Source: Nitrospirota bacterium
GTDB taxonomy: Bacteria > Nitrospirota > UBA9217
Assembly (NCBI GenBank): GCA_020052615.1
Contig: JAGVOT010000122.1
Location: forward strand, 1-32,000
Direction of reading: 5' to 3'
DNA length: 32,000 nucleotides
Below, in pieces: positions 4,388-27,042 of the stretch. Numbering within the stretch: the first letter of the stretch is position 1; every line of letters begins with the position of its first letter. The notes beneath the pieces are model-generated. The model saw only the letters and a list, made by a program, of their open reading frames with translations, did not search any database and was not told the DNA's origin. The position numbers were made by a program, and so were the translations under genes.

Positions 4388-4414
4388 ATCGTCCTTGTTT
4401 GCTGACGCATACCT

Positions 4415-5350
4415 ATGCCATCAAAAAAGAAAACAAAGCCCGACCTCTCGGTGGACTTCGCCGGGATCAGGCTCAAGAACCCCGTGCTGACCGCGTCGGG
4501 GACCTTCGGGTACGGCGAGGAGTTTGCCGATATCATCGACCTGAACCGGCTGGGCGGCGTGATCGTCAAGGGTATTTCGCTCAAACCGATCACGGGCAAT
4601 CCGCCGCCGCGCATCTGGGAGACGCCGTCGGGCATGCTGAACGCCATCGGGCTCGAGAACCCGGGCGTGGACGTCTTTCTCCGGGACAAGCTTCCCTTCC
4701 TCCGGAACTATGATATCGCTGTCCTCGTGAACATATTCGGGTACTGCCTCGAGGACTACGTGGGCGTTGCCGAGCGGCTTGACGGCGTCCCCGGCGTGTC
4801 AGGCCTCGAGGTGAACATATCCTGCCCCAACGTGAAGGCCGGCGGCATCGTGTTCGGCACGGATCTCAAGGCGGCCTTCGAACTGCTCTCGGCGGTCCGC
4901 AAGGCCACCCGGCTGCCGGTCATCGCCAAGCTTTCTCCGAACGTGACGGACATCACCGCGTTCGCGAGAACGGCCCGCGACGCGGGGTGCGACGGGCTTT
5001 CGCTCATCAACACGCTCCTCGGCATGGCCATCGACATCCGGAGCAGACGGCCGAGGCTGGCGAACTGCACCGGGGGACTGTCGGGCCCGGCGATCCGGCC
5101 GGTCGCCGTTCGCATGGTCTGGCAGGCGGCAAAGGCGGTGGACCTCCCTCTCATCGGCATGGGCGGCATCATGACCCATGAGGACGCCCTCGAGTTCATC
5201 CTCGCGGGGGCGTCGGCCGTGGCCGTGGGGACGGCGAACTTCGTCAATCCCCGCGCGACACTGGACATCATCGGGGGCATGGAAGCCTTCCTCGTGCAGG
5301 AAGGCATCGGCAGCGTCAGGGAACTGGTGGGAAAGGTGTGCGTGGCATGA
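4415..5350 (+). CDS. pyrD: dihydroorotate dehydrogenase, class 1B catalytic subunit
   Basis: 311 aa. Motifs seen are [33 protein letters not shown] and [10 protein letters not shown]. It is paired with pyrK. Confidence 0.93.
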
Positions 5351-6834
5351 GGTTCGTCTCGAGCCTGAAAAGCAAGATCATCCTGGCGGTGTCCGCGATC
5401 CTGGCGGTCATCATCGGGACCGGCACGTGGATCAACATCGGGTACCAGCGGTCCCAGATGGAGGGCGCCCTCGAGGACAACGTCCTGATCATTGCCAACA
5501 CGATCGAGAAGAGCCTGGACAACGCCATGCTTGACGGGAAGAGCAAGGAGGTGCAGCATATCCTCGAAGCCGTCGGGACCTATCATAATATCCAGGAGCT
5601 GAAGATCTTCAGCCCCAACGGCGTGATCCTGAAGGCCTCAAAGCCCGGTCTCATCGGCAGAAAAGTGGACGGCACGACCCAGAAGTGGTATCTCGAGGGC
5701 AAGTTCAAGCGGCCCATCAAGCGCCGCGACGAGGGCGTCTTCTCCGTGCTGTTCCCCATCGAGAACACGGAACGGTGCTTTCACTGTCACGGCTCCAAGG
5801 CGAAACTGAACGGCATCCTGTCCGTGGACGTGTCCATGGCGCAGACGCAGGCGAAGGTCGGCGAGCTCAGCAAGACCATGGTCCTCTGGGCCTTCGGCAT
5901 CACGGCGACGCTTGCCCTGTCGCTGGGCATGTTCCTGACCAGGTTCGTCACGAAGCCGATCCAGGACCTGATCGCCACCATGGAGCGTGCGGAGCGGGGG
6001 CTGGAGGCGCGGGTGCAGGTGAAGAGCTCCGACGACATCGGACGGCTGGGCGAGGCGTTCAATTCGCTCCTGTCCAAGCTGGAGCGGGCGCGCCGCCGCG
6101 TTGAACGGTATCATTACGAGCAGATGAAGAGGGCTGACCGCCTGGCGTCGATCGGCGAGATGGCGGCCGGCATCGCACACGAGATCAAGAACCCCCTTGC
6201 GGGCATTGCCGGCGTGATCCAGGTGCTGAAGAAGGACCTCCCGCCGGGGGAACCGAAGCGGGCCGTGCTGGACGAAGTGCTTTCCCAGGTGGAGCGCATG
6301 GACAAGGCCGTCCGAAACCTCCTGTCCTTCGCCCGGCCTCCGGAACCCAAGATGACCCTCGTGGATGTCAACGAACTCATCGCCAAACTGCTCGATTTTC
6401 TCGCTCCGCAGTTCGCGAAGCATGGGATCGCGGCGGAACGGAAGCTTAGCACGGGACTGCCCTGGCTCGCTCTGGACCCCGACCTGCTGCAGCAGGCCCT
6501 TCTGAACATCTCCCTGAACGCCATCAAGGCCATGCCCGAAGGAGGCAGCTTCTCCATTGAAACCCGGCTGGAACTGCCGGAAGGAACGGGTCAGGGCGCC
6601 ATCAGGATCATTTTCTCGGACACCGGCGAGGGGATCCTGCCGGAGAACCTGGGCAGAATATTCAGTCCGTTCTTTACGACGCGCCAACAGGGTACGGGGT
6701 TGGGACTGGCCATTACCCAGCGGATCGTCGAGCAGCATAATGGGGAGATCAGCGTGATGAGCACTCCGGGACGGGGGACTTCCTTCACGATCAGCCTCCC
6801 GTTGTCCGTGAGCGAGCAGGCACAAGGAGCGTAG
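5347..6834 (+). CDS. sensor histidine kinase: TM, periplasmic domain with one CXXCH, TM, HAMP, HisKA, HATPase_c
   Basis: The H-box is [15 protein letters not shown]. The ATPase motifs are NAIKAM, DTGEGI and GTGLGLA. Two hydrophobic segments flank a domain of about 150 aa containing [11 protein letters not shown]. The ATG at 5347 overlaps the pyrD stop (ATGA). A GTG at 5338 is an alternative start. Confidence 0.88.
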
Positions 6835-6839
6835 GGACT

Positions 6840-8207
6840 ATGCCGCAGAAGATCCTGGTCATTGATGATGAAAAACTGATCCGCTGGACCCTGGAACAGC
6901 ACCTTGCAAAGGAAGGGTTCGAGGTGGTGACCGCGGATTCCGCGGAGAAGGGGCTCGAGATCATCAATGAGGATGCTCCGGACCTCATCCTTCTCGATAA
7001 CCGCCTGCCGGAGATGACGGGTCTCGAGCTCCTGGAGCAGTTGAATGTGCCGGAGCGGGGCCTCATGGTCATCATGATCACCGCGTACGGGCTTGTGGAA
7101 ACAGCGGTCAGGGCGATGAAACTGGGCGCCTACGACTACATCAGCAAACCCTTTAACCTCGAAGAGATCACCTTCGTGATCCGGAAGGCCATGGAGGCGG
7201 GGTCGCTCCGGTACCAGGTAAGGCAGCTGCGGGACAAGGTCAACACGATCATCGGAGAGAGCGACCAGATGGTGCAGGTGAAGAACCTCATCCTCAAGAT
7301 CGCCAAGAGCGACGCGACGACGGTGCTGATCCAGGGTGAAAGCGGTACGGGGAAGGAACTGGTGGCCAAGGCGATCCATTACAGCAGCGCACGGGCCGAC
7401 AAGCCGTTCATGGCCATCAACTGCGCGGCGCTGCCGGTCACGCTGCTGGAGACCGAGCTCATGGGCCATGAAAAGGGGGCGTTCACCGACGCCAAGGCGG
7501 CAAAGAAAGGGCTGTTCGAACTTGCCGACGGCGGCACCCTGTTCCTTGACGAGATCGGCGACATGGACCTGAGCATGCAGGCCAAACTTCTGCGTATTCT
7601 CGAAGAAAAGACCTTTCGCAGGGTAGGGGGGGTCAAGGATATCAAGGTGGATGTACGGGTCATTTCCGCAACGAACCAGGATCTTTCGACTACCCGGAGC
7701 GACATCCGGTTCCGGAAGGACCTCTACTACCGACTTCAGGTGGTCCCCATCCTTCTGCCGCCGCTGCGGGAGCGGGGACAGGATGCACTTCTTCTCGCAC
7801 GGCATTTCACCGATTATTTCAGCCGGGAATGCCACAAGAGCGTCAAGGGGATATCCAAGGACGTGGAGCGTGTGCTGCTGTCCTACCACTGGCCGGGGAA
7901 CGTGCGGGAGCTCAAGAACGTCATCGAGCGGGCCATGATCTTCGATGTCGAACAGGAGCTCCTTCCGGAGCACATTCCCCAGGAGATCATGGAGTCCGGG
8001 ACGGTACCGGTCGTGCATGCTGAATCTGCCATCTCGCTGGATTGTCTCGTCATACCCGAGACGGGGATATCCATTGAGGATGTCGAGCATGCCTTGGTCA
8101 AGAAGGCACTGCAGATGGCAGGAGACAATCAGACGCGTGCGGCTCAGCTGCTCAGGATGCCCCGCGACGCGTTCCGGCGGAGGATGAAGCGGTTTGGACT
8201 GATCTGA
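6840..8207 (+). CDS. sigma54-dependent response regulator (REC, AAA+ enhancer-binding domain, Fis-type HTH; NtrC/AtoC family)
   Basis: The REC domain has DLILLD. The Walker A motif is GESGTGKE. The sigma54-contact loop reads GAFTDA. Also present are DEIGDM, the R-finger region RVISATN and a C-terminal HTH (NQTRAAQLLRMPRDAFRRRMKRFG). Confidence 0.92.
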   Translation: MPQKILVIDDEKLIRWTLEQHLAKEGFEVVTADSAEKGLEIINEDAPDLILLDNRLPEMTGLELLEQLNVPERGLMVIMITAYGLVETAVRAMKLGAYDYISKPFNLEEITFVIRKAMEAGSLRYQVRQLRDKVNTIIGESDQMVQVKNLILKIAKSDATTVLIQGESGTGKELVAKAIHYSSARADKPFMAINCAALPVTLLETELMGHEKGAFTDAKAAKKGLFELADGGTLFLDEIGDMDLSMQAKLLRILEEKTFRRVGGVKDIKVDVRVISATNQDLSTTRSDIRFRKDLYYRLQVVPILLPPLRERGQDALLLARHFTDYFSRECHKSVKGISKDVERVLLSYHWPGNVRELKNVIERAMIFDVEQELLPEHIPQEIMESGTVPVVHAESAISLDCLVIPETGISIEDVEHALVKKALQMAGDNQTRAAQLLRMPRDAFRRRMKRFGLI

Positions 8208-8570: not shown

Positions 8571-8642
8571 AGGACCTATATCGTGACCTGCTGCACAATC
8601 GTGTTCCGTTGCGCGTTCGCTTTAAAGAGGTCCGATGAAAGG

Positions 8643-9428: not shown

Positions 9429-9481
9429 GCGTTCCTTTGTTCGTGAGACCGCCTCTTCATGCCCGGAGTGTCCCGAATGGA

Positions 9482-10273: not shown

Positions 10274-10506
10274 TTTGTGGTTCTCCTTCCTAATTGCCTA
10301 ATTGGTGCGGCGTGATAACGTGAACACGATCAATTGTCGGGCAGGACGCTGGGGCCCGGCGCGCAGACTCCCGTGATGCGGATACGAAAATGCCTTATGC
10401 TCCTTTAAAAGATCTTTGACACTGAAGACCCTGAGAACGGCTATGATAACTGCGGATACATCGATTCATTATCATGCCTCTTCATAAGAAGTCATCCGCC
10501 ACTTCT

Positions 10507-10543
10507 GTGTCAAAGAATCCAGGATCCTGATTTTCTTTGACAC
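10507..10543. promoter_or_regulatory. near-perfect 37-bp palindrome (operator or RNA hairpin candidate)
   Basis: Sequence GTGTCAAAGAA-TC-CAGGATCCTG-ATT-TTCTTTGACAC. It has 11-bp perfect arms around a 10-bp perfect palindrome. A third copy of the half-site, TCTTTGACAC, lies at 10413-10422. Confidence 0.6.
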
Positions 10544-10551
10544 GGAAGATA

Positions 10552-12012: not shown

Positions 12013-12078
12013 AGGTTTTGTCCGAAAAGCCACGAAAGTCTATCAGAATATACGAAAAAAATCAAATGGTTCGCCCGA

Positions 12079-13377: not shown

Positions 13378-14039
13378 CCGTTTGCCCCTCTGACGATGGT
13401 GATTTCGATGCGCCGGTTCTTTGCCCGCTCTGCGTCGGTCTCGTTCGACGCAGCAGGCCTGAACTCTCCGAGCCCATGGGCGACAAGCCGCTCAGGGGCA
13501 ATGCCCTTGTTGATGAAATAGTAAATGACGCTGAAGGCCCTCGCAGACGACAGTTCCCAGTTTGAATCATACTGAGCGGTGTGTATGGGTATATTGTCCG
13601 TATGCCCTTCGGCGATGACCCTGTTGCTCATGGGTTTCAGCTGTCCGTGCAGATGTTCCAGAAAGGCCCCGATCCCCGGTTTCAGCTCGGCGCTGCCGCT
13701 GTCGAAGAGCGCAAAGCTCTCCATCTTGATCTTGATGTGGTGCGGGGTGATGACGAGCTGGATATTGTCGGTCATCCTGTTCTTTTCGATGAAGTCCCGG
13801 ATGTTCTGCGCCAGCGCGATCTCCTGTTTCATCTGCTTCACCCGCGGATCGTTCGGATTCGTCTCGGCAAGGTCGGAGAGCGCGGTCTCGTATTCCACGG
13901 AACCGGAATAGGAAAAGGCGTAGAACATGATGAAGAGGATGACCAGCGTGAGCATGAGGGTGCTGTAGGGCAGCATCCACAGCTCGGTCTCTTCCAGGTG
14001 CTCTTCGGTGTATTGTACGAACTTCCGGAGTACCGACAT
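13374..14039 (-). CDS. MotB-like protein, paralogue 2 (single TM lacking the conserved Asp; OmpA-like peptidoglycan-binding domain)
   Basis: The TM segment is LWMLPYSTLMLTLVILFIMFY. The C-terminal region is AEGHTDNIP...SNWELSSARA...NRRIEITIV. Its start shares one nucleotide with the upstream stop (TAATG). Confidence 0.82.
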   Translation of the reverse strand: MSVLRKFVQYTEEHLEETELWMLPYSTLMLTLVILFIMFYAFSYSGSVEYETALSDLAETNPNDPRVKQMKQEIALAQNIRDFIEKNRMTDNIQLVITPHHIKIKMESFALFDSGSAELKPGIGAFLEHLHGQLKPMSNRVIAEGHTDNIPIHTAQYDSNWELSSARAFSVIYYFINKGIAPERLVAHGLGEFRPAASNETDAERAKNRRIEITIVRGANG

Positions 14040-14716
14040 TACAGCGTGCTCCTCGCCTGGCGGACCAGGGTGATTTCGATGCGCCGGTTCCGGGCCCGAT
14101 TCACGTCCGAGTCGTTGGGATATGCCGGGTGGAACTCACCGTACCCTGCTGCCACGAGCTGCCCGGGGTCCATGCCGGAGGCGGTGAAAAAATTGACGAC
14201 GCCGACAGCCCGTGCGATGGACAGTTCCCAGTTGGAACGGTACGCGCCTCCGCGGACCGGGATCGCGTCCGTGTGGCCTTCGATGATGATGTCGTTGGGG
14301 AACGCCTCGATCAATCCAACGAGGCTTTCCAGGACATTGACCGTGCCGGGATTGAGCCTGGCGCTTCCGATGGAAAAGAACGTTTCGGGATTCAGGGCGA
14401 TCTTGACGGTCTTGTCCGTTACCGCGATGGTCGCCTTCCCGGAAAGTTGCCCATCCGAGGCCGCCTGCTCGATGCGCTTGATCGCCGCTTCTTCCCTTGC
14501 CATCTTCGCCTGGCGCTCCAGTTCGGCCTGCTCCCGCGCCGATTGGTTGACCACCGTGCTTTCCATGCCGGCGACCACCATCTGCTTTTCCACGGCGGTC
14601 ATGCGCGTCATGGAGAACAGCATAAGGAAGAACAGCATGAGGTTGGTCGTAATATCGGAAAAGATGATCAGCCAGATATTGCCGAACTCTTTCCTTTTTT
14701 CAGTCTGTGCATGCAT
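14039..14716 (-). CDS. MotB-like stator protein, paralogue 1 (TM with conserved Asp; OmpA-like domain)
   Basis: The TM segment is NIWLIIFSDITTNLMLFFLMLF, with Asp at the position of the MotB proton-binding Asp. The C-terminal region is IEGHTDAIP...SNWELSIARA...NRRIEITLV. Confidence 0.85.
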   Translation of the reverse strand: MHAQTEKRKEFGNIWLIIFSDITTNLMLFFLMLFSMTRMTAVEKQMVVAGMESTVVNQSAREQAELERQAKMAREEAAIKRIEQAASDGQLSGKATIAVTDKTVKIALNPETFFSIGSARLNPGTVNVLESLVGLIEAFPNDIIIEGHTDAIPVRGGAYRSNWELSIARAVGVVNFFTASGMDPGQLVAAGYGEFHPAYPNDSDVNRARNRRIEITLVRQARSTL

Positions 14717-14748
14717 GCCCGTGTCCGATCCCGTGTAGCTTCTTCCGG

Positions 14749-15519
14749 CTACTTCTGCCGAATATGCGCCATGATGAAAGCGGTCAGTTTCTTCCTCAGG
14801 ATGAGGGGGACGTCGCCCTGCTGGATCGACATGACGCCTTCAGCGATCATCTCCTTGCTGATGATGTCCCGCTCGCTGTGGTCGGTGAGCTTCGTCGCGA
14901 TCGGGATGAAGACGTTCGCCGAGAAGATCCCGTAAAAGGTCGCCGTGACGGCATTGGACATCGCGGCGCCCATGCTGGCGGGATTGGAAAGGTTCCTCAG
15001 CATTTCCACAATGCCCATGAGCGTGCCGAGAAGTCCGAAGATGGGGGCGACCGTGGCCATGGTCCGGAAGGCCCCTGAGACCTTTTGCTGATTGTGGCGG
15101 GTATAGAATATCTCGCGGCCGAGATTGTCCTTGATGACGTCGTGTTCAAGACCGTCAACGAGCATCTGGACGCCATGGACAAGGAATTTGTCCTCCATTT
15201 TCGGTATCTCGGCGGAAAGGGTCTCGATGCCGTCACGACGCGCCTTTTCGGCAAGCGAGGCAAGGTAATCGATCTTGTCCTCCATGTCCTTGTCGGAGTG
15301 CTTGCTGGGGAACAGCATGATGCGCAGGGACGGAATGATCTCCCGCACGACCGACCAGGGATAGGCTATCAGGGTAGCGCTGAACGTGCCGCCGTAGACA
15401 ATGACGAGCGCCAGGGGATTGAACAGCATGTGCAGGATGTTGCCTACCGCCAGAACATACAGGATCGTCAGCAGGATCGCGACGAGCCCGACAATTGTCA
15501 TTTTATCCATTTTTTCCAT
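14749..15519 (-). CDS. MotA/PomA-type stator channel protein
   Basis: It has a four-TM layout (two TM, a cytoplasmic loop of about 100 aa, two TM). It carries APIFGLLGTLMGIV and AVTATFYGIFSANVFIPIATKL, which include both conserved Pro positions. The ATG at 15519 lies 2 nt after the upstream stop, with GGAGG about 15 nt upstream. A TTG at 15543 is an alternative start. Confidence 0.88.
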   Translation of the reverse strand: MEKMDKMTIVGLVAILLTILYVLAVGNILHMLFNPLALVIVYGGTFSATLIAYPWSVVREIIPSLRIMLFPSKHSDKDMEDKIDYLASLAEKARRDGIETLSAEIPKMEDKFLVHGVQMLVDGLEHDVIKDNLGREIFYTRHNQQKVSGAFRTMATVAPIFGLLGTLMGIVEMLRNLSNPASMGAAMSNAVTATFYGIFSANVFIPIATKLTDHSERDIISKEMIAEGVMSIQQGDVPLILRKKLTAFIMAHIRQK

Positions 15520-15520
15520 G

Positions 15521-16942
15521 TTAGTTGTTTTCAACCTCCACAAGGCCTTCGTTGATCAGGCGGCGTACCACGACCATCAGGTTCTGTTTCTCCCGCCGGA
15601 GACGTGTTGCTGAGAGGGGACGGCTGAATTCCATCTCCTGCTTGAGCCGCTCGGCGGCACCGGCGCTCAAGGATGAGAGGACCTTCTGCTGGATGTCCTC
15701 GGAAGAGGTCTTCAGGATCTGGGCGAAGAGCGCGGCCTCGACGTTCCGGGTGAGCGTCTGGATGCCCTGTGCCGGAAGGTCGCGGATGATGTTCTCCAGG
15801 CTCCTGATGCGCTGCTTCAGGCGCGCGGCGGTGGGGGCGTCCTTCGCCTCGAGCGTCTTGACGATCTTCTCGCGGACCTCCTCGTTGGTCATATCGAGCA
15901 GCGTGACCAGCTTGTTTTCGCCGCCCACGACGTAGGTGAGCTTGTTCTTGACCATCTCTTCGAGGGCGGTAACCTTCTCGACGCTGATCTCTTCCTTGCC
16001 GAGGGATATCGCGACCTCGACCTGCTTCTCCTTCGGGAAAAGCTCGAGGAACCGCATGGCAAGGACGGGGTCAAGGTAGTTTGTCACGATCGCAATGTCC
16101 TGCGCCGCCTTGTCCTTCAGGAGGAACGCGAGGCCAGGGAGGTCGCGCTCGCGAACGAAGGAGAAGGGAAGCCCCGCTTCCTGCGCGGAGACGGCTGCGG
16201 CGGCCGCAACCGCGCTGCCTGCCATGACCTCCCGCTCATAGGTCGAGGTATGCTCCACGTTGACGGTCTGTGCCGTAGCACCTCCGCCCCGGATGGCGCT
16301 CCAGTCGATCTCCTTGAGGGCCGGGATCACTTTCTTAAGCGGATCCATCAGGAACAGTCCGGCCATGACCATCATGAAGCCGCCAACGATGGTCAGGATC
16401 AGCCACAGGAAGTTCGGAAGTGCGAAGAGCGTTCGGAAAAAGCCCTTTGATTCGAAGTCAACTTTCTTTACGTTGATCTGGTCGCCCCGGGTCTGGCTGA
16501 ATCCGATCACGTTCTTCGCCATGTCCTCGATAAGTTCCACGATCGACCCCGGAACGCTGCTGTCGATCCAGATGGAAAGGGTGATCTTGTTGACCCGGTA
16601 CTTGCTGCTCCCGGCGCCGAACAACATCTCGGACTGCCCGGCGCCGAACTCCTTCTTTTGCGGAACGCCGGGGAGCACCAGCGCGTTCGTCTTCTTTTTT
16701 TCGAGAAGCTGGTCGCTGCCGCCTCGCGCGGACACCAGCTCGGCATTCACAAAGATGACGACCTTGTCCGTACCGGTTATTTCCTGGATGACCTGTTTGA
16801 GCTTGCGTTCAAGCTGGCTCTCCAGGGAGATCTTGAGAGCATAATCATCATTTACCTCGGCGTGCGACACCGGGACGGCCGTGAGAAGAATAAACATGAC
16901 GAGAAGAAGCAGGAGTGGACTGCGAGTGATTGTTCGAACCAT
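15521..16942 (-). CDS. membrane protein fusing a shortened FliF-like periplasmic segment and TM to FliG middle and C-terminal domains
   Basis: The signal peptide or first TM is LLLLLVMFILLTAVPVSHA. The periplasmic part ends in LIEDMAKNVIGFSQTRGDQINVKKVDF followed by a TM, which resembles the remembered end of Salmonella FliF (MGFSDKRGDTLNVVNSPF plus TM2). The cytoplasmic part matches the FliG middle and C-terminal domain pattern: DIAIVTNYLDP..A..FL..FP, VVGGENKLVTLL and LSAGAAERLKQEMEF...VVVRRLINEGLVEV. Confidence 0.75.
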   Translation of the reverse strand: MVRTITRSPLLLLLVMFILLTAVPVSHAEVNDDYALKISLESQLERKLKQVIQEITGTDKVVIFVNAELVSARGGSDQLLEKKKTNALVLPGVPQKKEFGAGQSEMLFGAGSSKYRVNKITLSIWIDSSVPGSIVELIEDMAKNVIGFSQTRGDQINVKKVDFESKGFFRTLFALPNFLWLILTIVGGFMMVMAGLFLMDPLKKVIPALKEIDWSAIRGGGATAQTVNVEHTSTYEREVMAGSAVAAAAAVSAQEAGLPFSFVRERDLPGLAFLLKDKAAQDIAIVTNYLDPVLAMRFLELFPKEKQVEVAISLGKEEISVEKVTALEEMVKNKLTYVVGGENKLVTLLDMTNEEVREKIVKTLEAKDAPTAARLKQRIRSLENIIRDLPAQGIQTLTRNVEAALFAQILKTSSEDIQQKVLSSLSAGAAERLKQEMEFSRPLSATRLRREKQNLMVVVRRLINEGLVEVENN

Positions 16943-17035
16943 GTTTGTATCCCCTATTAAATTAATTATTGAAAATGGAACGATGTCGGCAAGGGCGATT
17001 GTCGATCAAGCGTCAATTTTGCAACCAGAATATCG

Positions 17036-17052
17036 ATGCAATATATGTACCT
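17036..17052 (-). promoter_or_regulatory. candidate sigma54 (-24/-12) promoter for the minus-strand array
   Basis: The minus strand reads AGGTACATATATTGCAT. This gives GG-N10-GC spacing and a perfect TTGCA -12 element, with two mismatches to TGGCAC. It lies about 95 nt upstream of the ATG at 16942. Confidence 0.4.
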
Positions 17053-17381
17053 GTAGTTTCACACTAATAATTGTTGGATGTGATATTCAAGTATGTGAAA
17101 AATAAGAATTAATTAAAAAATAATTTGCGCCTCTATGGGATTTAACAAATATTTAACCGAGCGAATGTGCTCACCCGGTGCTTGTTAGTGCTCTCTAATG
17201 TTTACGAGTAAGCGTCCCAAATTAGCACAGTGCAAGATTATTTGTAAAGTGGAATCTTGTCTTTTATTTCGAGAGTGTGTATGATATTCCGTTCAGAGAT
17301 CATGTGTCGGCTGTTCTTTGGCCAGGATTTCGGTGCTCTGTATCGTAAAATCCACCGGCAAAGATCAGCGGGAAGGGACCT

Positions 17382-19022
17382 ATGAAAAAAATAGCGATGA
17401 TCGTTATGGGTTTGTTCATTCTGTTGACCGTCGGCGGCGCAAATGCAGCGACAAGCAGGAAGGCAACTCCCAAGGACAAGGCGCCGGCAGTCAAGGACAG
17501 GAGCGCGGCGGGTGCTCCCGCAAAAGCGGAGAAGACGTCTGTGCCTCTCAACGAGCGTTATACCGACAAGGGCGACGGCACGATCCTTGACAAGAACACC
17601 GGCCTGATCTGGCTCAAAGATGCCAATATCAGCAATCTGCCCCTGCCCGGCGAGGGCGCAAAGCAGTATCTTCAGGAAATGAACAGCGGAAAAAAACCGA
17701 ATTTCGGCTACTCCGATTGGCGCCTGCCGACCATCAATGAGATCGAGACGCTCGTGGAGAAATCCCGGTTCTATCCGGCGCTTCCGGTCGGCCACCCGTT
17801 CACGAATGTGCAGAACCATTTCTACTGGTCGTCGTCGACGGGGAAAGATGTTCTCGATTACGTATGGATCGTGGACCTGGCATCGGGCGAGATGACCATG
17901 GACTATGTTTCCTATTGCAGTTACAAGTTCCTCTGGCCGGTCAGGAGCAGCTGGATGCCGACGACCGCCAAGGCGAGCACCGTCATGACCGGCGGCCTGA
18001 ACGAATTCGGCCAGCTCGGCGACGGCTCCACGGGGGACCGGGACGCATTCCTGCCGGTAAGCGGCCTGGAGAACGTGGTCAAGGTCTCCGCGGGCCTTGA
18101 ACATGCCGTGGCGCTCAAGTCAGACGGGTCTGTTTGGACGTGGGGACGGAACAACCGGGGCCAGCTGGGGAACGGCACCGTCGAAGACAGCCGGGTGCCG
18201 GTCGCTGCCAAGGACCTCTGGAGGATCACCGATGTCGCGGCGGGCATGTTCCATACGCTCGCACTTGCGTCCGATGGAACGGTCTGGGCCTGGGGGCGTA
18301 ATTCCTACGGACAGCTCGGGAACGGATCCAACGAGGACAGCATAACACCGGTGCGGGTCAGCGGTCTGTCGGGCGTCGTGAAGATCTCCGCGGGGATGTA
18401 TCACTCGGTCGCGGTCAGGTCCGACGGATCGGTCCATGCCTGGGGCAGGAACGTGTACGGTCAGCTTGGCGACGGCTCGAACAAGGACCGGAACAGTGCA
18501 GGTCAGGTTTCCGGGATATCGGGAGCCGTGAACGTCACTGCGGGGCTTCATCATACGGTGGTCCTGAGATCCGATAAGACCGTCTGGGCATGGGGCTGGA
18601 ATATCAACGGCATGCTCGGTGACGGGACGGGAACCGATCAGTTCAAGCCGGTGCAGGTCAAGGGCCTTGCCGACATCGTGGACATCCAGGCGGGACTGCA
18701 TCACACCATTGCGCTCAGGTCCGATGGGAGCGTCTGGACATGGGGGGGGAACGAATACAGCCAGCTTGGCAACAAGTCGGCAAGCGGATCAACGGCGATC
18801 AAGATCGATGGCTTGGGGAACATCAAGAAGGTATCGGCGGGAATGTACCACTCCATCGCTGTGATGACGGACGGTACGATCTGGGTATGGGGCAAGGACC
18901 TGAAGAACCAGCCGTTGAAACCCTATCCCGTACGGATATGGGATGTTGCCGGGATAAACGATGTCGCTGCCGGACGGTTCTATACGGTCGTGTTGAGCGG
19001 CGGAAAATCTGCCGTGCAGTGA
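17382..19022 (+). CDS. secreted protein with a DUF1566 (Lcl C-terminal-like) domain and seven RCC1 beta-propeller repeats
   Basis: The signal peptide is MKKIAMIVMGLFILLTVGGANA. The DUF1566 pattern is GDGTILDKNTGLIWLKD...DWRLPTINEIETLV...YWSSS...WPVRS. It is followed by repeated W(T/A)WG.N..GQLG(D/N)G units. Confidence 0.85.
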   Translation: MKKIAMIVMGLFILLTVGGANAATSRKATPKDKAPAVKDRSAAGAPAKAEKTSVPLNERYTDKGDGTILDKNTGLIWLKDANISNLPLPGEGAKQYLQEMNSGKKPNFGYSDWRLPTINEIETLVEKSRFYPALPVGHPFTNVQNHFYWSSSTGKDVLDYVWIVDLASGEMTMDYVSYCSYKFLWPVRSSWMPTTAKASTVMTGGLNEFGQLGDGSTGDRDAFLPVSGLENVVKVSAGLEHAVALKSDGSVWTWGRNNRGQLGNGTVEDSRVPVAAKDLWRITDVAAGMFHTLALASDGTVWAWGRNSYGQLGNGSNEDSITPVRVSGLSGVVKISAGMYHSVAVRSDGSVHAWGRNVYGQLGDGSNKDRNSAGQVSGISGAVNVTAGLHHTVVLRSDKTVWAWGWNINGMLGDGTGTDQFKPVQVKGLADIVDIQAGLHHTIALRSDGSVWTWGGNEYSQLGNKSASGSTAIKIDGLGNIKKVSAGMYHSIAVMTDGTIWVWGKDLKNQPLKPYPVRIWDVAGINDVAAGRFYTVVLSGGKSAVQ

Positions 19023-19033
19023 CCGAAAAAAGG

Positions 19034-19348
19034 CTATTTCTCCGCACCCTGTTTCGATTCGATCATGAATTCAAAGAGTGCCCTGCACTTTTTCAACCGC
19101 TGCAGGTAGATCTTTTTCGACGGATCATCGGATGCCTGTATTTCCGGCATCAGCTTGTCCGACCGCTCTATCAGGGAAGAAAGTTCCTTGATGCTCAACG
19201 TATCGGACCCCTGCGTTTTTGAACAGATATCGTTAAAAGAGTCCTTCCAGTTCCCGGCGGCCGAAGGCGTCGGGAACATTGCCAGTGTCAGCAGGAGCAT
19301 CACTGCCAGTCCAAGTATCATGTGTTCTGTCTTTATTTTATTTTTCAT
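19034..19348 (-). CDS. small secreted hypothetical protein
   Basis: 104 aa. There is a hydrophobic signal-like segment, ILGLAVMLLLTLAMFPTPSAA, followed by a helical charged region. No motif was recognised. Confidence 0.5.
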   Translation of the reverse strand: MKNKIKTEHMILGLAVMLLLTLAMFPTPSAAGNWKDSFNDICSKTQGSDTLSIKELSSLIERSDKLMPEIQASDDPSKKIYLQRLKKCRALFEFMIESKQGAEK

Positions 19349-19650
19349 GGCATATATTTAATCGAAAAATACATTTTCTGTCAAGAACTATATCTTTAAT
19401 TTTTCTTTTCGGTGTTCATGGTAAGGCCGCAGCTCTGCAAGAGACATATTTGACCGACCTGTCGCTTGAACCGGACATCAATTTCCCATAAGCATCTAAT
19501 GTTCGATTACCACGATAATTAGTTGTGGTGCTAAGAGCGCTTATGAACACTTTTTGAGCGTATATGCTCATTGTTTTCGTAACGCACTTTTTTTATATAA
19601 TATTAGTTCATAAAATCATGTAGTTATGCTTGATATCCCTATGTTGCAGG

Positions 19651-19666
19651 AGGCATGTTTATTGCA
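19651..19666 (+). promoter_or_regulatory. candidate sigma54 (-24/-12) promoter for the plus-strand cytochrome array
   Basis: Sequence AGGCATGTTTATTGCA. This gives GG-N10-GC spacing and a perfect TTGCA, with two mismatches to TGGCAC. It lies 58 nt upstream of the ATG at 19724. An IHF-like AATCAT-N4-TTA site is at 19614-19626. Confidence 0.5.
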
Positions 19667-19723
19667 ATTAAATGATAACTACCTGTTGTTATTTCACCTT
19701 GAACATCAAGGAGTTAAACGAAT

Positions 19724-21079: not shown

Positions 21080-21183
21080 ACGGCGTTTGGCGGTCCTGTC
21101 CAGGCAGGAAAGAATACGTGGGTCCTAATAACAGCGCAGCAGACCGATGTCGGGGGAATAATTTGAACAGACCATGGTCAATC

Positions 21184-23124
21184 ATGATGGCGGCGGCAAT
21201 TGCGCTTACCGTTATCCTCATTGCGTATTCATTCTCGGCGGCCCAACCGGCGACATCACCCTCGATCTCGATCCTGTATCCGAAGCATAATGCCCTGGTC
21301 GGGAAAAAGGTCAATCTCGTCGTTGACCCGGCGACCGACTGGACAGCGGCTCCTTTTCTTCAGGTCGTGGTGGGCAACACCGAATACCCGGTGATCGACA
21401 CATCCGCCGGCCGTCATGCAGTTCAGGGTCTTTCTCTGGAGACGGGATCCAATACGATAACGGTCAGGGTGCTCGCCGTTGTTCCCGGTCCGGATCAGGC
21501 AAAGGGAAACAACCGGGAACAAGAGCAAGCAAAGGATTCTGCGAAAAAGAAGTATACCCAGGTCCTGTCGCGCTCGATTACGGTCTTTAACCGGGAGGGC
21601 AGCTTTGCGACCACTCCGCCGCAATTCACGGCACAACACTTCCATTCACGGGAGCAGGAAGGCGAGTGCTCGGGGTGTCACCGTCTTGAGGCCGAACCGA
21701 AGGATCTCAAGCCGGCGAAGCCTGAAGAGATGCTCTGTTATGCCTGCCACCGCGAGATCCCGACCGGCAGGCACATCCATGGGCCGACGGCGGTCTGGAA
21801 CTGCCTGTCATGCCATAACACCGAGATCTATCCGGTGAAGTACCAGTTCATATCCTACAATCCATGGACGGTCACCAAAACGACGCAGTCCGTGGAGCCT
21901 GCCGTGTTCACCTTGTCCTCTGACGTTCTTTTCAAACCCAAATCGGCCCTGTTCGTGAGCGAAACGTCAACACTTCAGCTCAGCAAGAAAGATCGGAAGA
22001 ACAAAAAGAAGCTTGAGGAGTTTAACAGGGCAAAGGCGGCGGAACTGGCATTAAAGCGCGAACAACAGCGGGAACTTTTTAAGGATTTTCTTGAATTCAT
22101 CAAATTGAATCCAGCGGACAAGATACTGGTCGAGGCCCATGTAGATTCCGGCCATTTTCCGCCCGCAAAAGGGAAGGCGAAGGGATTCAAGAACGATGTG
22201 CAACTGACCGCGGCGCGGGCAAAGGCCCTTGTAAAACTGCTGAAGCATTATGGTGTCGCCGGGAAGAACCGCGTTGCGGCCGCCGGCATGGGCAGCACCC
22301 TGCCGAAGGCGCCCAATACGAGCAAAGAGGGAAGGGAATTGAACAATCGTATTGAGATCGTCGTCTATCCGCCGGACGTCAAGATCAAGAACAGCATGAA
22401 ACTTCCCGTCCTCAAAGACCGGGAGCGGGTGGTCGTAACCATGAGTTATCAGCGGGGTGCCGAGGTCGGAAAACTGGCGGTCACGGAACACCTCCCGAAG
22501 GGATTTCTCTATATGCAGGGGAGCGGGGTATTTCGCGGCGCCATTAAGAACCCGCAGGTCAAAGGAAGCGATCTGACCTGGCAGCTCGGGAATTTCGGCA
22601 CGAATTTCCAGGAGACCCTGTCATTCATCGTTAAAAAAGGGAAAGAGGTCACCGCTCCGTTAAGCCCGGTCGTGAATCTCTCGTTCAAGATCGGTCAAAA
22701 GGACGAGCGATTGACGTTCGATCCGGAAAAGCCGTTCAAACCCGGCCTTACCGTCAAAGAGACCTGCGAAAAGTGCCACATGAGCCTGCTTGCATATCCC
22801 GTCAAGCATGGTCCCGCTGAAGCGGGTCACTGCACGCTTTGCCATGATCCCCATGCCAGCAAGTACCCTTCATGGACCCGTAACCAGTCCTGGCGCCTGT
22901 GCACGACCTGCCACGCTGAGAAAAAGACCGGTGTGCACCTGATCGCGGGCTTTGTTCATGGGGTCTCCCATCCCACGAAAAAATGGCCCGATCCATCACG
23001 GCCGGGAAAGCGCCTCACCTGCGTGAGCTGTCATTCACCGCACAGCTCTCAAACGAAGGAACTCATGGCTTTCGACGTCCGGAACAAATATGAGTCGTGC
23101 AGATATTGCCACGCCCAAAAGTGA
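21184..23124 (+). CDS. octaheme c-type cytochrome with an embedded OmpA-like domain and a DUF11-like beta domain
   Basis: The N-terminal hemes are CSGCH, CYACH and CLSCH. The C-terminal hemes are CEKCH, CTLCH, CTTCH, CVSCH and CRYCH. Between them lies ILVEAHVDSG...NDVQLTAARAKALVKLL...NNRIEIVVY, which follows the OmpA_C pattern. The start is uncertain: ATG at 21184, TTG at 21163 or GTG at 21118. The ORF-track start at 20917 overlaps the previous gene and is rejected. Confidence 0.85.
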   Translation: MMAAAIALTVILIAYSFSAAQPATSPSISILYPKHNALVGKKVNLVVDPATDWTAAPFLQVVVGNTEYPVIDTSAGRHAVQGLSLETGSNTITVRVLAVVPGPDQAKGNNREQEQAKDSAKKKYTQVLSRSITVFNREGSFATTPPQFTAQHFHSREQEGECSGCHRLEAEPKDLKPAKPEEMLCYACHREIPTGRHIHGPTAVWNCLSCHNTEIYPVKYQFISYNPWTVTKTTQSVEPAVFTLSSDVLFKPKSALFVSETSTLQLSKKDRKNKKKLEEFNRAKAAELALKREQQRELFKDFLEFIKLNPADKILVEAHVDSGHFPPAKGKAKGFKNDVQLTAARAKALVKLLKHYGVAGKNRVAAAGMGSTLPKAPNTSKEGRELNNRIEIVVYPPDVKIKNSMKLPVLKDRERVVVTMSYQRGAEVGKLAVTEHLPKGFLYMQGSGVFRGAIKNPQVKGSDLTWQLGNFGTNFQETLSFIVKKGKEVTAPLSPVVNLSFKIGQKDERLTFDPEKPFKPGLTVKETCEKCHMSLLAYPVKHGPAEAGHCTLCHDPHASKYPSWTRNQSWRLCTTCHAEKKTGVHLIAGFVHGVSHPTKKWPDPSRPGKRLTCVSCHSPHSSQTKELMAFDVRNKYESCRYCHAQK

Positions 23125-23192: not shown

Positions 23193-24200
23193 ATGCTCAG
23201 CTGCCGATTACTCATAACGACCCTGCTCATTGCGGTGAGCAGCGCTGGTTGTGCCTTTATTGCCGGCCAGGACGACCCCGGCGCGCCCGGCGAGGGCGTT
23301 AAACACATCCGGCTCAATTATGTCGAGACGCTGAGGAACCAGGCCAGCCTTCGCGGAGAAGGCTTCCTTGACGTTGTTCACACGGCGGGCACTCCGACGA
23401 CCCTCCAGCGGCCCAACAGCGTGTTCGCCGACGCGTTCCGCGTCTATGTGACCGATCAGGCGCAGCCGCCCCGGGTCTTCATCTTCGACCGTGGCGACCG
23501 CACGGCGAGCATCCTTGCCGTCCCCGTCCCGCCCGCCGCAGGATCGCTCGTGAATCCGCTGGGCATTGCGGTGGACATCGACGGCGTCATCTACGTCGCC
23601 GATGCTCAACAGGGAAAGGTATTCGGCTACGACAGGAACGGGGCGCTGCTCCTGACGTTCGGGAAAACCGGCGACCTTGCTTATCCGACGGGAATTGCCA
23701 TCGATAAAAGAAGGAATCGCATCCATATTGCGGATTCCCATGCGCATTTGGTCAAGACCTTTACGATACTGGGAGAACGGCTTTTTGAGATCGGCGTGGC
23801 GGGTCCCGCCGACCAGCGGCCAAAGTCTCCGGCCGGGATCGCCCTCGACGGGGAGGGGAGGATCCACGTTCTCGACAGCCGGTCCCGACGCGTGTTGATC
23901 TATGATCCCGAAGGCAGGTTCATGAGGTCGTTCCCCCTGTCTCGCGGCGGCGCCGGCGACTCGGTGAAGCCCGGGGGGATCGCTGTGGACTCGGCGGGAC
24001 ATATCTATGTGACGGACAGCGTCAATAACAATATCCTCATCTTCGAGTCCGACGGCAGTTTTTTAAGAACTTGGGGCAAAACCGGGAACTTGAAGGGTGA
24101 TTTCTGGTCGCCCCAGGGTCTGTTCATTGACGAACGCGACATGCTCTATGTTGCAGATCAAACCAACAGCCGTGTCCAAGTCTATCAATTCATAAAATGA
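23193..24200 (+). CDS. NHL-repeat beta-propeller lipoprotein
   Basis: The signal and lipobox-like sequence is LLIAVSSAGC. NHL units recur, for example PTGIAIDKRRNRIHIADS, PAGIALDGEGRIHVLDS, PGGIAVDSAGHIYVTDS and PQGLFIDERDMLYVADQ. Confidence 0.85.
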   Translation: MLSCRLLITTLLIAVSSAGCAFIAGQDDPGAPGEGVKHIRLNYVETLRNQASLRGEGFLDVVHTAGTPTTLQRPNSVFADAFRVYVTDQAQPPRVFIFDRGDRTASILAVPVPPAAGSLVNPLGIAVDIDGVIYVADAQQGKVFGYDRNGALLLTFGKTGDLAYPTGIAIDKRRNRIHIADSHAHLVKTFTILGERLFEIGVAGPADQRPKSPAGIALDGEGRIHVLDSRSRRVLIYDPEGRFMRSFPLSRGGAGDSVKPGGIAVDSAGHIYVTDSVNNNILIFESDGSFLRTWGKTGNLKGDFWSPQGLFIDERDMLYVADQTNSRVQVYQFIK

Positions 24201-25231
24201 TTGTGAACACGACCCGTCTCAGCGCGTATGCATCGGTAGTTGTTGCGCTTGCATTGATGTTCCTTGCTTCCTGCGGACCTCCCCCCCGGCCACCGGAGCC
24301 GACCGACCTGTTCTGGCCGCTGCCTCCGGATCTTCCGAAAATACAATATGTCAAGTCGATCTACAATGAGGACGATATCGGCCGTGTCTATACGCTGAAG
24401 GAAAAGCTCTTCGGCAAGGATTACTTGGACAGTCTGACCAGGCCGTACGGTGTTCATACGCGGCGCGGCATTATGCTTGTTTCAGACATTTCCCGGCGAA
24501 GGGTGCTTCTCTTCGATCTGGTGAACAAGCGGCTTCGTGTCCTGGGAGACGACGGTGCTATAACGACGCCCGCGTCCGCCGCGACGGACCTCTCCGGAAC
24601 CATCTATGTCGCCGATACCGGCGGGTCCAAGATCGCTGTCTATGGTCCCGATGGGGCCTATCGGACGGCATACATCTTCAAGGGGAGCAGGCTGGTGTCC
24701 GTGGCGCTCAACGAAGCACTGGGACGGGTGTACGCCGTGGACCGTGAGGGCCATCGTGTCGTTGCTTTTGGACTTGATGGACGTCATCATTTTGAGTTCG
24801 GAGGGCGGGGAAGCGCTGACGGGAAGTTCAATTACCCTCTCGATATTACGGTTGCCGCCAACGGCGATGTGTATGTGCTTGACGCGGGCAACTTCCGGGT
24901 GCAGATCTTCTCGGCGGAAGGCAGGTTCCTGTCCAAGTTCGGGTCGGTAGGCGACCGTCCGGGCATGTTCGCCAATCCCAAGGGGATAGCTGTCGATTCC
25001 GAGGGCCATATATACGTGACCGATGCCGCTTTCAGCAACCTTCAGATATTTGATCGTGAGGGGAATGTCCTTCTCTTTATAGGACAACTTGGTCCCCGGC
25101 GGGGTGATTTTCATCTCCCCGGCGGGGTCTCCATTGACGAGAACGATCGGATCTACGTTGCCGATCAAATGAACGGACGAGTCCAGGTGTTCCAGTACCT
25201 GAAAACGCAAGGGTCGACCAGCACGCCATGA
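24197..25231 (+). CDS. NHL-repeat beta-propeller lipoprotein (paralogue)
   Basis: The lipobox is LMFLASC. NHL units include PLDITVAANGDVYVLDAGNFRVQIF, PKGIAVDSEGHIYVTDAAFSNLQIF and PGGVSIDENDRIYVADQMNGRVQVF. The start overlaps the upstream stop (ATGA). Confidence 0.87.
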   Translation: MIVNTTRLSAYASVVVALALMFLASCGPPPRPPEPTDLFWPLPPDLPKIQYVKSIYNEDDIGRVYTLKEKLFGKDYLDSLTRPYGVHTRRGIMLVSDISRRRVLLFDLVNKRLRVLGDDGAITTPASAATDLSGTIYVADTGGSKIAVYGPDGAYRTAYIFKGSRLVSVALNEALGRVYAVDREGHRVVAFGLDGRHHFEFGGRGSADGKFNYPLDITVAANGDVYVLDAGNFRVQIFSAEGRFLSKFGSVGDRPGMFANPKGIAVDSEGHIYVTDAAFSNLQIFDREGNVLLFIGQLGPRRGDFHLPGGVSIDENDRIYVADQMNGRVQVFQYLKTQGSTSTP

Positions 25232-27042
25232 CTCAGAAGAAACCATCCTTCCGGGGGATCATCCAATCGCTCGGTCTTGTCTTCGGCGATATCGGCACGA
25301 GCCCCATTTACACCCTCACGGTCATCTTTATGCTCGCAGAACGGAATGAGAAGAATGTGATCGGTGTTCTTTCACTCATTTTCTGGACACTCATCCTGCT
25401 TGTCACAGTCCAGTACACGTGGCTTGCCATGAGCCTTGGTCGTCGGGGTGAGGGCGGCACGATCGTTCTACGAGAGATTCTCGTCCCTCTTCTGAAATCC
25501 AGTCGCACTGCGGCCTTCGTCACGCTCCTGTCGTTCATAGGGATTTCGCTGATTGTCGGCGATGGCGTGATCACGCCGGCTATCAGTATTCTCTCGGCCG
25601 TGGAAGGTCTGCTCCTGATTCCGGGACTGGAACAGACTCCCCAGACCGCACTCATCTTGATTGCCGGCATCATTGCGATCGTGCTTTTCTCCTTCCAGAA
25701 AAAGGGGACGGATAAGGTTGCCGGCGCTTTTGGACCAATCGTGTTGATATGGTTCCTGGTGTTGTCAGTCTCGGGTGTGGCCGCGATTGTTCGGGTGCCG
25801 GGCGTGGCGAAAGCGATGAACCCCTGGTTCGCCATCCGATTTTTTCTCGACAATGGCGTAGCGGGTTTCTTTGTCCTGTCCGAGGTCATCCTCTGCGCTA
25901 CAGGAGGTGAGGCGCTCTATGCCGACATGGGGCATCTGGGCAGAACGCCTATCGTACGCGCGTGGTCCGGTGTCTTCATCGCGCTAGTGCTGAACTACTT
26001 TGGCCAGGGCGCATTCATCCTGGCAAATCCCGATTCAAAGAACGTGCTGTTCGAAATGGTCTATTCCCAGGCCAGCTTTTTGTACATCCCGTTCCTGCTG
26101 CTGAGCATCATGGCTACGGTCATCGCGTCCCAAGCCATGATCAGCGGCATGTTCTCCATCGTGTACCAGGGCATCGCCACCCGCGTCATGCCCATGTTCA
26201 AGATCGACTATACATCTCGCGAGCGCCAGTCACAGATCTACATCGGGGTTGTCAACTGGTTCCTGCTGCTGGCCGTCCTGTTCATCATGTTCGAGTTCCA
26301 AAAATCGAGCAACCTGGCAGCGGCTTACGGACTTGCCGTGACCGGCACTATGACGATCACCGGAGTTATGATGATCGGGATTTATTCCCTGCGACGGAAA
26401 TTCTTCCGTGCGGGCGTTGCGTTCTTCGTGACGATTGTGTCGGTCGCCTACTTCATCTCCAACACCTACAAGATTCCGCACGGAGGCTACTGGTCGCTCA
26501 TCATTGCAGCGATACCGTTCAGCATGATCATGCTGTACACGCGGGGGCAGAAGAAGCTCTACAATGCCCTCCAGCCGCTGCCGCTGGACGTGTTCCTGCC
26601 GAGCTACAACCAGATCTACAAGGCGGTGAACAAGATCAGCGGTACGGCCCTCTTCTTCGCCAAGGACGCGAAAGAGGTCCCTCCCTATGTCGTTCATACC
26701 ATGTTCAAGAACAACATTCTCTATGAGGACAATATCATCGTATCCATTGTCCGGCGGGACGACCCGTTCGGCGTGACCGGTTATTTCAAGGAGGAGATTG
26801 CCCCCGGGCTCCGGTCGTTCGAGATCCAGGTGGGCTACATGGAGATCCCTGATGTGGAAGAGATCCTGCGGGAGGCCGACATCCGGGAGAAGACCATCTT
26901 CTACGGCGTCGAGGACATCACGGCAACGAATATCTGCTGGCAGGCTTTCTCGGTCATCAAAAAACTGACGCCGAACATCGTCCAGTTCTTCAAGCTCCCG
27001 GCCAACAAACTGCATGGCGTGGTGACGAGGGTGGAGATGTGA
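25228..27042 (+). CDS. kup: KUP/HAK/KT-family potassium uptake protein
   Basis: 604 aa and polytopic. The N-terminal signature is LGLVFGDIGTSPIYTL, and GGEALYADMGH is also present. The start overlaps the NHL gene stop (ATGA). Confidence 0.92.
   Translation: MTQKKPSFRGIIQSLGLVFGDIGTSPIYTLTVIFMLAERNEKNVIGVLSLIFWTLILLVTVQYTWLAMSLGRRGEGGTIVLREILVPLLKSSRTAAFVTLLSFIGISLIVGDGVITPAISILSAVEGLLLIPGLEQTPQTALILIAGIIAIVLFSFQKKGTDKVAGAFGPIVLIWFLVLSVSGVAAIVRVPGVAKAMNPWFAIRFFLDNGVAGFFVLSEVILCATGGEALYADMGHLGRTPIVRAWSGVFIALVLNYFGQGAFILANPDSKNVLFEMVYSQASFLYIPFLLLSIMATVIASQAMISGMFSIVYQGIATRVMPMFKIDYTSRERQSQIYIGVVNWFLLLAVLFIMFEFQKSSNLAAAYGLAVTGTMTITGVMMIGIYSLRRKFFRAGVAFFVTIVSVAYFISNTYKIPHGGYWSLIIAAIPFSMIMLYTRGQKKLYNALQPLPLDVFLPSYNQIYKAVNKISGTALFFAKDAKEVPPYVVHTMFKNNILYEDNIIVSIVRRDDPFGVTGYFKEEIAPGLRSFEIQVGYMEIPDVEEILREADIREKTIFYGVEDITATNICWQAFSVIKKLTPNIVQFFKLPANKLHGVVTRVEM

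Follow-up and report, generated by a model that had tools for sequence, protein, structure and literature searches.

How electrons pass over the 20 to 40 nm of periplasm and cell wall is still debated for most bacteria beyond Shewanella and Geobacter. Among the closest described systems are the decaheme cytochromes MtrA, DmsE, PioA, and MtoA, Sec-exported proteins built from doubled CXXCH units that are presumed to form linear, bis-His-ligated envelope wires. In others, large periplasmic multiheme cytochromes are encoded beside one or two NHL proteins, with which they are thought to form electron-transfer or nanowire-assembly complexes; examples are the Uet clusters of "Ca. Tenderia" and Gallionella (bioRxiv 10.1101/2022.05.06.490989; PMC10734462), the D. 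ferrophilus clusters DFE_0448-0451 and DFE_0461-0465 (PMC9769857), and the osc (omcS companion) operon of G. sulfurreducens (PMC13194489 and PMC12977616, citing Shen 2025). Here we describe a locus from a Nitrospirota bacterium (assembly GCA_020052615.1, contig JAGVOT010000122.1, positions 1 to 32,000; this whole stretch of 32,000 nucleotides is called the window) in which the second of four closely spaced plus-strand genes encodes an octaheme c-type cytochrome with an OmpA-like domain and a beta-sandwich inserted between its hemes. The first gene encodes a 13- to 15-heme cytochrome and the last two encode NHL lipoproteins, an order that recurs in each related locus with enough sequence to reveal it. 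We lean toward a reading in which the octaheme protein is a wall-docked heme relay, acting with its partner cytochrome and the NHL lipoproteins in an envelope conduit that has no porin. A sequence-only reading of this DNA had called a cell-wall anchor set between hemes an unfamiliar architecture, and indeed the papers that could be searched for OmpA-like, peptidoglycan-binding, multiheme, NHL, and Nitrospirota describe no OmpA-bearing multiheme cytochrome.

The window protein has a core homologous to the MtrA-type decahemes and shares their doubled CXXCH units, Sec export, and presumed linear wire. It differs from them in having eight hemes rather than ten, an extra Ig-like domain, a 295-amino-acid insertion, and NCBIfam scores far below the cutoffs. 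The MtrA-type systems also differ in their MtrB/PioB porin: no porin-like gene is present in the four-gene cassette, and no MtrB/PioB porin (PF11854) was found adjacent to it or anywhere else in the 97.8%-complete genome to which the window belongs. As for the Uet and osc loci, the likeness is one of gene content, in that two NHL lipoprotein genes follow two cytochrome genes in the window and in all of its relatives. Uet clusters additionally encode a porin (UetC), a peptidyl-prolyl isomerase (PPIase; UetB), and a cupredoxin (UetF), none of which occurs in the window's cassette, and osc encodes secretion and folding components and the PPIase OscH, whereas the cassette has no PPIase. None of the Uet, DFE, and osc clusters is reported to have an OmpA-like domain inside a cytochrome.

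The reading frame at 21184 to 23124 on the plus strand is free of stops and translates to 646 amino acids with eight CXXCH motifs, at C162, C185, and C207 and then at C528, C550, C573, C613, and C639. The bounds first proposed for the gene hold as an open frame, but the ATG at 21184 is probably not its start. We prefer the TTG at 21163, because the resulting N terminus (MNRPWSIMM...) agrees with that of the homolog P0004 and GGGGGA lies 5 nucleotides upstream. A hydrophobic signal peptide at the N terminus, which contains no lipobox cysteine, is the sole hydrophobic segment of the protein, and the gene is present in a single copy in its genome (3.99 Mb). The domain order that had been read from the translation (signal peptide, Ig-like segment, Lys/Glu-rich linker, three CXXCH motifs, OmpA block, beta domain, and five CXXCH motifs) was upheld by profile matches, fold comparison, and family conservation. 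The Ig-like domain contains a disordered Lys/Glu-rich loop (residues 103 to 121) and an invariant His78, and it is present in homologs that lack the insert as well. An AlphaFold2 (AF2) model of the protein, built on the family alignment, has a predicted local distance difference test score (pLDDT) of about 90 at residues 225 to 515 and of less than 50 in the heme parts, as expected for a model without hemes.

The same architecture recurs well beyond the window. A word-indexed search of NCBI, ENA, JGI, and Logan assemblies yielded about 70 protein clusters, 41 to 87% identical to the window protein and nearly all full length, so that the layout, which the sequence-only reading had proposed to look for in other genomes, is shared in full by independent Nitrospirota assemblies. 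Among species-representative genomes, this long form is confined to Nitrospirota metagenome-assembled genomes (MAGs) from groundwater, soil, and sediment; in the source records, the only name seen within the family is "cytochrome c3 family protein." Homologs without the insert (326 to 388 amino acids) occur in Campylobacterota (Sulfurimonas and Sulfuricurvum), in Aquificota (Persephonella), in other Nitrospirota, and in Deltaproteobacteria MAGs. They have the Ig-like domain, eight CXXCH motifs, and seven distal histidines, and their genes likewise follow that of a 10- to 15-heme cytochrome, but they lack the OmpA-like and beta-sandwich module and their partners vary by clade. Short homologs from Sulfurimonas, an Aquificales MAG, and a deltaproteobacterial MAG align to the Ig-like and triheme parts and then pass straight to the pentaheme part, with a gap of 4 to 6 residues facing residues 221 to 516, approximately, of the window protein. 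All eight CXXCH motifs and His154, His199, His542, His557, His585, His596, and His620 are invariant across the long and short forms. Since the short homologs align over both heme parts, the core is a single continuous MtrA-like octaheme wire. An anchor between two heme modules had been suggested, and the three-plus-five layout stands, but the two parts are not separate heme units: they form one core, and the module of about 295 amino acids sits in the loop that joins hemes 3 and 4.

Among solved structures, the core profile comes closest to 6R2Q chain A (E value, 8e-20), which we take to be MtrA of Shewanella MtrCAB although the PDB molecule label reads otherwise, and the next is 6I5B, presumably OcwA of Thermincola; the pentaheme part alone matches 6R2Q chain A at 1.5e-9. 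The DmsE family model TIGR03508 matches the pentaheme part at 6.8e-13, but with 48.7 bits against a cutoff of 192.2 and with eight CXXCH motifs against ten, so the protein is a homolog of MtrA and DmsE and not a member of that family. Outside the insert, the long forms conserve eight histidines that are not part of a CXXCH motif (His78 and the seven shared with the short forms), which fits eight bis-His hemes, and all eight are probably ligated in this way. In short forms from Campylobacterota and Aquificota, a conserved cysteine (YCQS, FCKS, or YCKS) lies near the His78 position (L052, 9066 to 10097; L030, 8466 to 9593 and 9610 to 10590). The carriers of these short forms are sulfur metabolizers, and by analogy with sulfur-converting cytochromes the cysteine may ligate a heme. 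The distribution among sulfur organisms raised the idea of a link to the pentaheme selenoprotein MccSep (PMC13510729); the best solved relative of the core is 6R2Q chain A.

The insertion has a single origin. In a maximum-likelihood tree computed on the octaheme core alone, leaving out the columns of the insert, every row that carries the insert groups in a single clade (SH-aLRT, 100), and the two insert-less relatives L022 and L023 are nested in a subclade of that clade with a support of 99. This topology fits a module that was gained once and then lost once or twice. In L023, about 18 residues from the start of the insert are still there, a remnant that points to secondary deletion. Hidden Markov models for the four parts of the protein, run over 91 loci, never found the OmpA-like part without the beta-sandwich part or the reverse (both present in 19 rows, all of them Nitrospirota, and both absent in 65). 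Across the family, identity is 50% in the OmpA core and 43% in the beta-sandwich, compared with 55 to 60% in the heme parts, which indicates that the insert is under purifying selection. L022 (9260 to 10423) and L023 (2 to 694) come from Nitrospirota relatives (52 to 56% identical) and are accompanied by the partner cytochrome and both NHL genes. A short-form homolog also turned up in a Thermoplasmata archaeon MAG (L026), through either a binning error or horizontal transfer.

The first domain of the insert is OmpA-like by sequence and by fold. Pfam OmpA (PF00691) matches residues 292 to 387 with 34.9 bits against a cutoff of 27.2, and the matched nucleotides, 22057 to 22344, fall inside the stretch of about 21930 to 22380 in which an OmpA_C hit had been anticipated. 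NCBIfam models for TssL, MotD, MotB, YiaD, and YfiB match over residues 289 to 400, and most of the roughly 70 homolog clusters carry PF00691 together with cytochrome families in precomputed Pfam annotation. When residues 230 to 420 were searched against the PDB, the top match was the C-terminal domain of H. pylori MotB (E value, 2e-7), and a profile of the region from 31 family members matched OmpA, OprF, TssL, YfiB, MotS, PomB, and MotB structures at 1e-14 to 1e-9. The AF2 model, a structure prediction that the sequence-only reading had proposed as a check, has the expected fold: residues 238 to 398 superimpose on residues 113 to 235 of H. pylori MotB with a Z score of 16.2 (root mean square deviation of 2.1 Å over 121 residues), and the Z score against A. 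baumannii OmpA (AbOmpA) bound to a peptidoglycan pentapeptide (3TD5) is 12.9. The leading Foldseek matches of the model in the PDB are all OmpA-like cell-wall anchors, with a probability of 1.00, and the nearest structures in the fold comparison are exclusively anchors of envelope machines (MotB, TssL/TagL, and DotU type); an ESM Atlas look-up gave no usable match. The domain has a Lys-rich helix at about residues 257 to 300 and a Lys-rich loop between His319 and Arg345. The helix is a lineage-specific, Lys/Glu-rich extension of about 40 residues that precedes the OmpA core in the subclade of the window protein.

With the wider set of OmpA-like anchors (MotB, PomB, and MotS; TssL/TagL of the type VI secretion system; DotU-type proteins of the type IV secretion system; Pal, OmpA, OprF, and YfiB), the domain shares the fold (Z scores of 12 to 16) and the signature E-x-H-x-D ... 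L-[ST]-x-x-R-A ... N-R-[IV]-E-[IV]. It differs in being internal to a cytochrome rather than C terminal to a membrane or lipid anchor, in its Lys-rich expansions, and in the beta-sandwich that comes next. Nor does the protein look like a MotB stator subunit, as it has no N-terminal transmembrane helix with an ion-binding Asp and no plug or linker, and heme modules flank the OmpA-like domain. It had been said to echo the MotB proteins encoded nearby, and at the level of the superfamily it does. A special kinship with those genes was rejected, the identity of 27 to 31% being ordinary for the superfamily and the MotB proteins being absent from the matches in the same genome at an E value of 0.001.

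The second domain of the insert had been called DUF11-like. Pfam DUF11 (PF01345) does not match the beta-sandwiches of the family members P0001, P0027, P0064, and P0013 even at an E value of 10, and a direct DUF11 assignment of residues 401 to 516 was therefore rejected. An exhaustive search with the insert alone returned the cytochrome family first and then proteins of 600 to 2,600 amino acids, which by Pfam are OmpA plus DUF11 repeat proteins, some with SdrD_B and CarboxypepD_reg, and which match query residues 80 to 262, approximately, in one contiguous run that starts in the latter half of the OmpA domain and carries on through to the beta-sandwich. Against P0087 the module gives one high-scoring segment pair, in which the OmpA domain continues unbroken into a DUF11-type region (29% identity; E value, 1e-18); the matching part of P0087 itself scores 23.9 bits for DUF11 against a cutoff of 24.6. 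The label is thus a reasonable though indirect one, borne out by homology of the module to OmpA-DUF11 tandems and not by a profile match of its own. Because the match to OmpA-DUF11 proteins is contiguous over both domains, the two-domain module predates its entry into the cytochrome.

The profile alignment of the family to the PDB sets riEvHtD over riEGHTD, LtearA over LSerRA, and NRiEi over NRRVEI. The EAHVD of the window protein, noted earlier as a departure from the usual GHTD, is the counterpart of that motif, with D321 (nucleotides 22144 to 22146) aligned to the GHTD Asp and R345 (nucleotides 22216 to 22218) aligned to the LSxxRA Arg. Of 31 family members, 27 have the Asp and 28 have the Arg, while E317, H319, A346, M369, and R389, the last being the Arg of NRIEI, are invariant in all 31. 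We take Asp271 of AbOmpA to be the GHTD Asp and Arg286 to be the LSxxRA Arg. These two AbOmpA residues are reported to bind diaminopimelate (DAP) (PMC5974059, citing Park 2012). With the corresponding pair in place, the OmpA-like domain of the octaheme cytochrome would bind peptidoglycan noncovalently.

The four genes are preceded by a conserved promoter element of the sigma54 type. The pattern GGCA[CT]-N5-TTGCA occurs once in the window, at 19651 to 19666, and among 14 related loci, 13 likewise have it ahead of their first cytochrome gene; a sigma54 match with two mismatches is, within the window alone, not above chance. A sensor kinase and an NtrC-type regulator (Table 1) probably control the cassette. 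In the relatives L001 and L002, this kinase/sigma54 regulator pair, following carB-greA-pyrK-pyrD, directly precedes the four-gene cassette, and the window carries the same carB-greA-pyrK-pyrD and regulator genes at 7 to 8207.

The following sequence of events would account for these features. The octaheme protein would be exported via Sec to the periplasm, where the Ig-like domain would be followed by a linear heme wire like that of MtrA and DmsE, and the MotB/TssL-type OmpA-like domain with its DUF11-like companion would have entered the loop between hemes 3 and 4 once, in one Nitrospirota lineage. A sigma54-dependent four-gene operon would supply the octaheme protein, the 13- to 15-heme cytochrome, and the two NHL lipoproteins. 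By gripping the DAP-containing stem peptide of peptidoglycan, the OmpA-like domain would fix the wire at a set depth in the periplasm, from which it may pass electrons between the 13- to 15-heme cytochrome and the outer-membrane side. There the NHL lipoproteins may act as scaffolds, and an MtrB-type porin would play no part. Several observations weigh against this proposal. The DAP-binding-type Asp is missing in P0016, P0022, P0025, and P0070 and the Arg in P0011, P0024, and P0027, together about one-fifth of the family. From His319 to Arg345 the family has 22 to 33 residues, MotB-like in the shortest members and Lys expanded in the rest, compared with about 18 in classical OmpA, so the pocket may differ. 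L022 and L023 have lost the module and kept the operon, which means that some backgrounds can do without the anchor. In the AF2 model the heme parts are unreliable, and the model thus gives no geometry of the anchor relative to the wire. Finally, the genome encodes DsrA, four heme-copper oxidase family genes, and NapC/NirT-type cytochromes, and with both Dsr and the oxidases on hand either direction of electron flow is possible.

Some of these same observations would suit a module that does not bind peptidoglycan and instead serves oligomerization of the cytochrome or its docking to the NHL lipoproteins or the partner cytochrome. The domain is retained even in the 20% or so of the family in which the Asp or Arg is replaced, its loop is enlarged and Lys rich, and the operon persists in L022 and L023 where the module is gone. 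The module might dimerize the cytochrome, as MotB-C, PA0833, and YfiB dimerize, and OmpA-like domains among the PDB matches are commonly dimeric. We nevertheless consider this explanation, the main alternative, unlikely: D321 and R345 are both present here, most family members have the pair, the OmpA signature including NRIEI is conserved, and every one of the closest structures is an anchor that ties an envelope machine to the cell wall. Display of the protein on or beyond the outer membrane, with the OmpA-DUF11 module acting as an adhesin-like or matrix-binding unit, appears quite improbable. It draws on the long repeat proteins with DUF11, SdrD_B, and CarboxypepD_reg domains that are the nearest relatives of the module outside the cytochromes, but the octaheme protein has a Sec signal peptide only, with no lipobox or secretion-system signal, and the cassette contains no porin or secretin gene. 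To our knowledge, OmpA-like domains are periplasmic in all cases that have been studied.

It is very improbable, in our estimate, that the cassette is a redox enzyme system, acting for example on sulfur compounds, in which the octaheme protein has a catalytic heme. The concentration of the short forms in sulfur-metabolizing Campylobacterota and Aquificota, the Cys that they have where the long forms have His78, and the DsrA of the window's own genome would all accord with such a role. Set against this, the long forms offer a conserved His as candidate distal ligand for every one of the eight hemes, a motif of catalytic type was not found, and among solved structures the nearest relative is the presumed electron wire MtrA (6R2Q chain A). 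An assembly chimera, which had been raised earlier as a possible artifact, or a decaying gene is refuted, since the layout recurs in about 70 independent clusters and 19 insert-bearing locus rows with a conserved insert, a conserved operon, and a stop-free frame; nothing was found in favor of it. The wall-docked relay is the reading that we favor; it builds on a demonstrated architecture, fold, single insertion event, operon, and promoter conservation, and has peptidoglycan binding, localization, partners, and direction of electron flow as its predicted elements.

We suggest, more tentatively, that this may be the first case of a multiheme cytochrome directly tethered to the peptidoglycan sacculus, a stationary relay in a porin-independent, wall-fixed conduit together with the 13- to 15-heme partner and the two NHL lipoproteins. 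If so, it would add to diffusing shuttles and porin-threaded wires a third way of moving electrons through the periplasm, and the insert-less L022 and L023 would be natural, built-in controls. That a cytochrome brings its own cell-wall anchor suggests that some lineages rely on fixed wiring rather than on carriers that diffuse. Carriers of the long form are widespread in groundwater and soil Nitrospirota MAGs, and the system may thus bear on subsurface iron, manganese, or sulfur cycling. The family also provides a clean evolutionary experiment, in which one ready-made module was inserted and at least once lost again while the operon otherwise stayed unchanged. For protein engineering, it reveals a natural site in an MtrA-like wire that accepts a two-domain insertion of 295 residues.

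TABLE 1 Coordinates, in the window, of the octaheme gene, its domains, and the associated genes and promoter element
Feature	Position	Strand	Basis or remarks
Sensor histidine kinase (Mcp40H-type periplasmic sensor, HAMP, HisKA, HATPase) and sigma54-dependent response regulator	5338..8207	+	Pfam
Sigma54-type -24/-12 promoter element AGGCATGTTTATTGCA	19651..19666	+	58 nucleotides before first cytochrome gene
Partner multiheme cytochrome, 451 amino acids	19724..21079	+	13 CXXCH, one CX4CH, one CX3CH; N-terminal hydrophobic segment; Pfam Paired_CXXCH_1 1.4e-75
Octaheme c-type cytochrome with inserted OmpA-like and beta-sandwich module	21163..23124	+	Earlier start ATG 21184, probable start TTG 21163
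N-terminal beta-sandwich (Ig-like), residues 30-136	21271..21591	+	AF2 strands 30-136, pLDDT 60-85
Triheme part, residues 145-221	21616..21846	+	CXXCH 162, 185, 207; distal His154, His199; columns invariant in long and short forms
OmpA-like domain, MotB/TssL type, residues 228-400	21865..22383	+	Pfam PF00691, PDB profile, fold Z 16.2, pLDDT about 90
Beta-sandwich, residues 401-516	22384..22731	+	AF2 strands 413-513, pLDDT about 90; Foldseek Ig-like and pilin-type matches
Pentaheme part, residues 517-646 and stop codon	22732..23124	+	MtrA/DmsE type; doubled CXXCH units; Pfam Paired_CXXCH_1 1.1e-24
NHL beta-propeller lipoprotein 1	23193..24200	+	Lipobox SAG-C; Pfam NHL 1.9e-26
NHL beta-propeller lipoprotein 2	24197..25231	+	Lipobox LAS-C; Pfam NHL 4.9e-32; start overlaps stop of NHL gene 1

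The surroundings of the cassette vary between loci. In the window, about 11 kb (8448 to 19723) separate the regulators from the cassette, compared with direct adjacency in L001 and L002, and this block looks like a later insertion into the junction between regulators and operon. It encodes on the minus strand two c7-type cytochromes, an 18-heme cytochrome, a TPR protein, two MotB proteins, MotA, and a FliF-FliG fusion, and it also holds an AT-rich island with an RCC1/Lcl_C protein. The same pattern search placed a second sigma54-like element, AGGTACATATATTGCA, at 17037 to 17052 on the minus strand, facing the FliF-FliG/Mot/cytochrome block. Downstream, the start codon of a Kup potassium transporter gene (25228 to 27042) overlaps the stop codon of NHL gene 2 (ATGA). 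The cassettes of L001 and L002 extend no further than their second NHL gene, which makes kup a lineage-specific neighbor. A transposase follows the cassette in L002, and in L001 the second NHL gene (13389 to 15335) is called as a 648-amino-acid product that includes phage-integrase domains and that may be a gene-call fusion or an abutting mobile element.

The partners of the short-form octaheme genes differ by clade, with a SurA-like PPIase in Sulfurimonas, NapC/NirT in Aquificales, and AhpC-TPR fusions in Thermodesulfovibrionia-type loci, and Campylobacterota short-form cassettes include NHL propellers. An Aquificales cluster (L030, 4885 to 10590) encodes a 10-heme cytochrome, a NapC/NirT quinol dehydrogenase, a larger multiheme cytochrome, and two octaheme paralogs in tandem; the cluster ties the octaheme family to the quinone pool in that lineage. 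One or two fusions of AhpC/TSA (thioredoxin fold) to TPR lie between the large cytochrome and the octaheme gene in L037 (5155 to 7983), L041 (8621 to 9628), and L036 (5421 to 6410), and such Thermodesulfovibrionia-type and deltaproteobacterial cassettes are without NHL genes. In a Sulfurimonas cassette (L052), the NHL and SurA-like PPIase genes are followed by a gene for a 585-amino-acid protein (13234 to 14991) that has no Pfam match and may be the outer-membrane barrel of the Sulfurimonas version.

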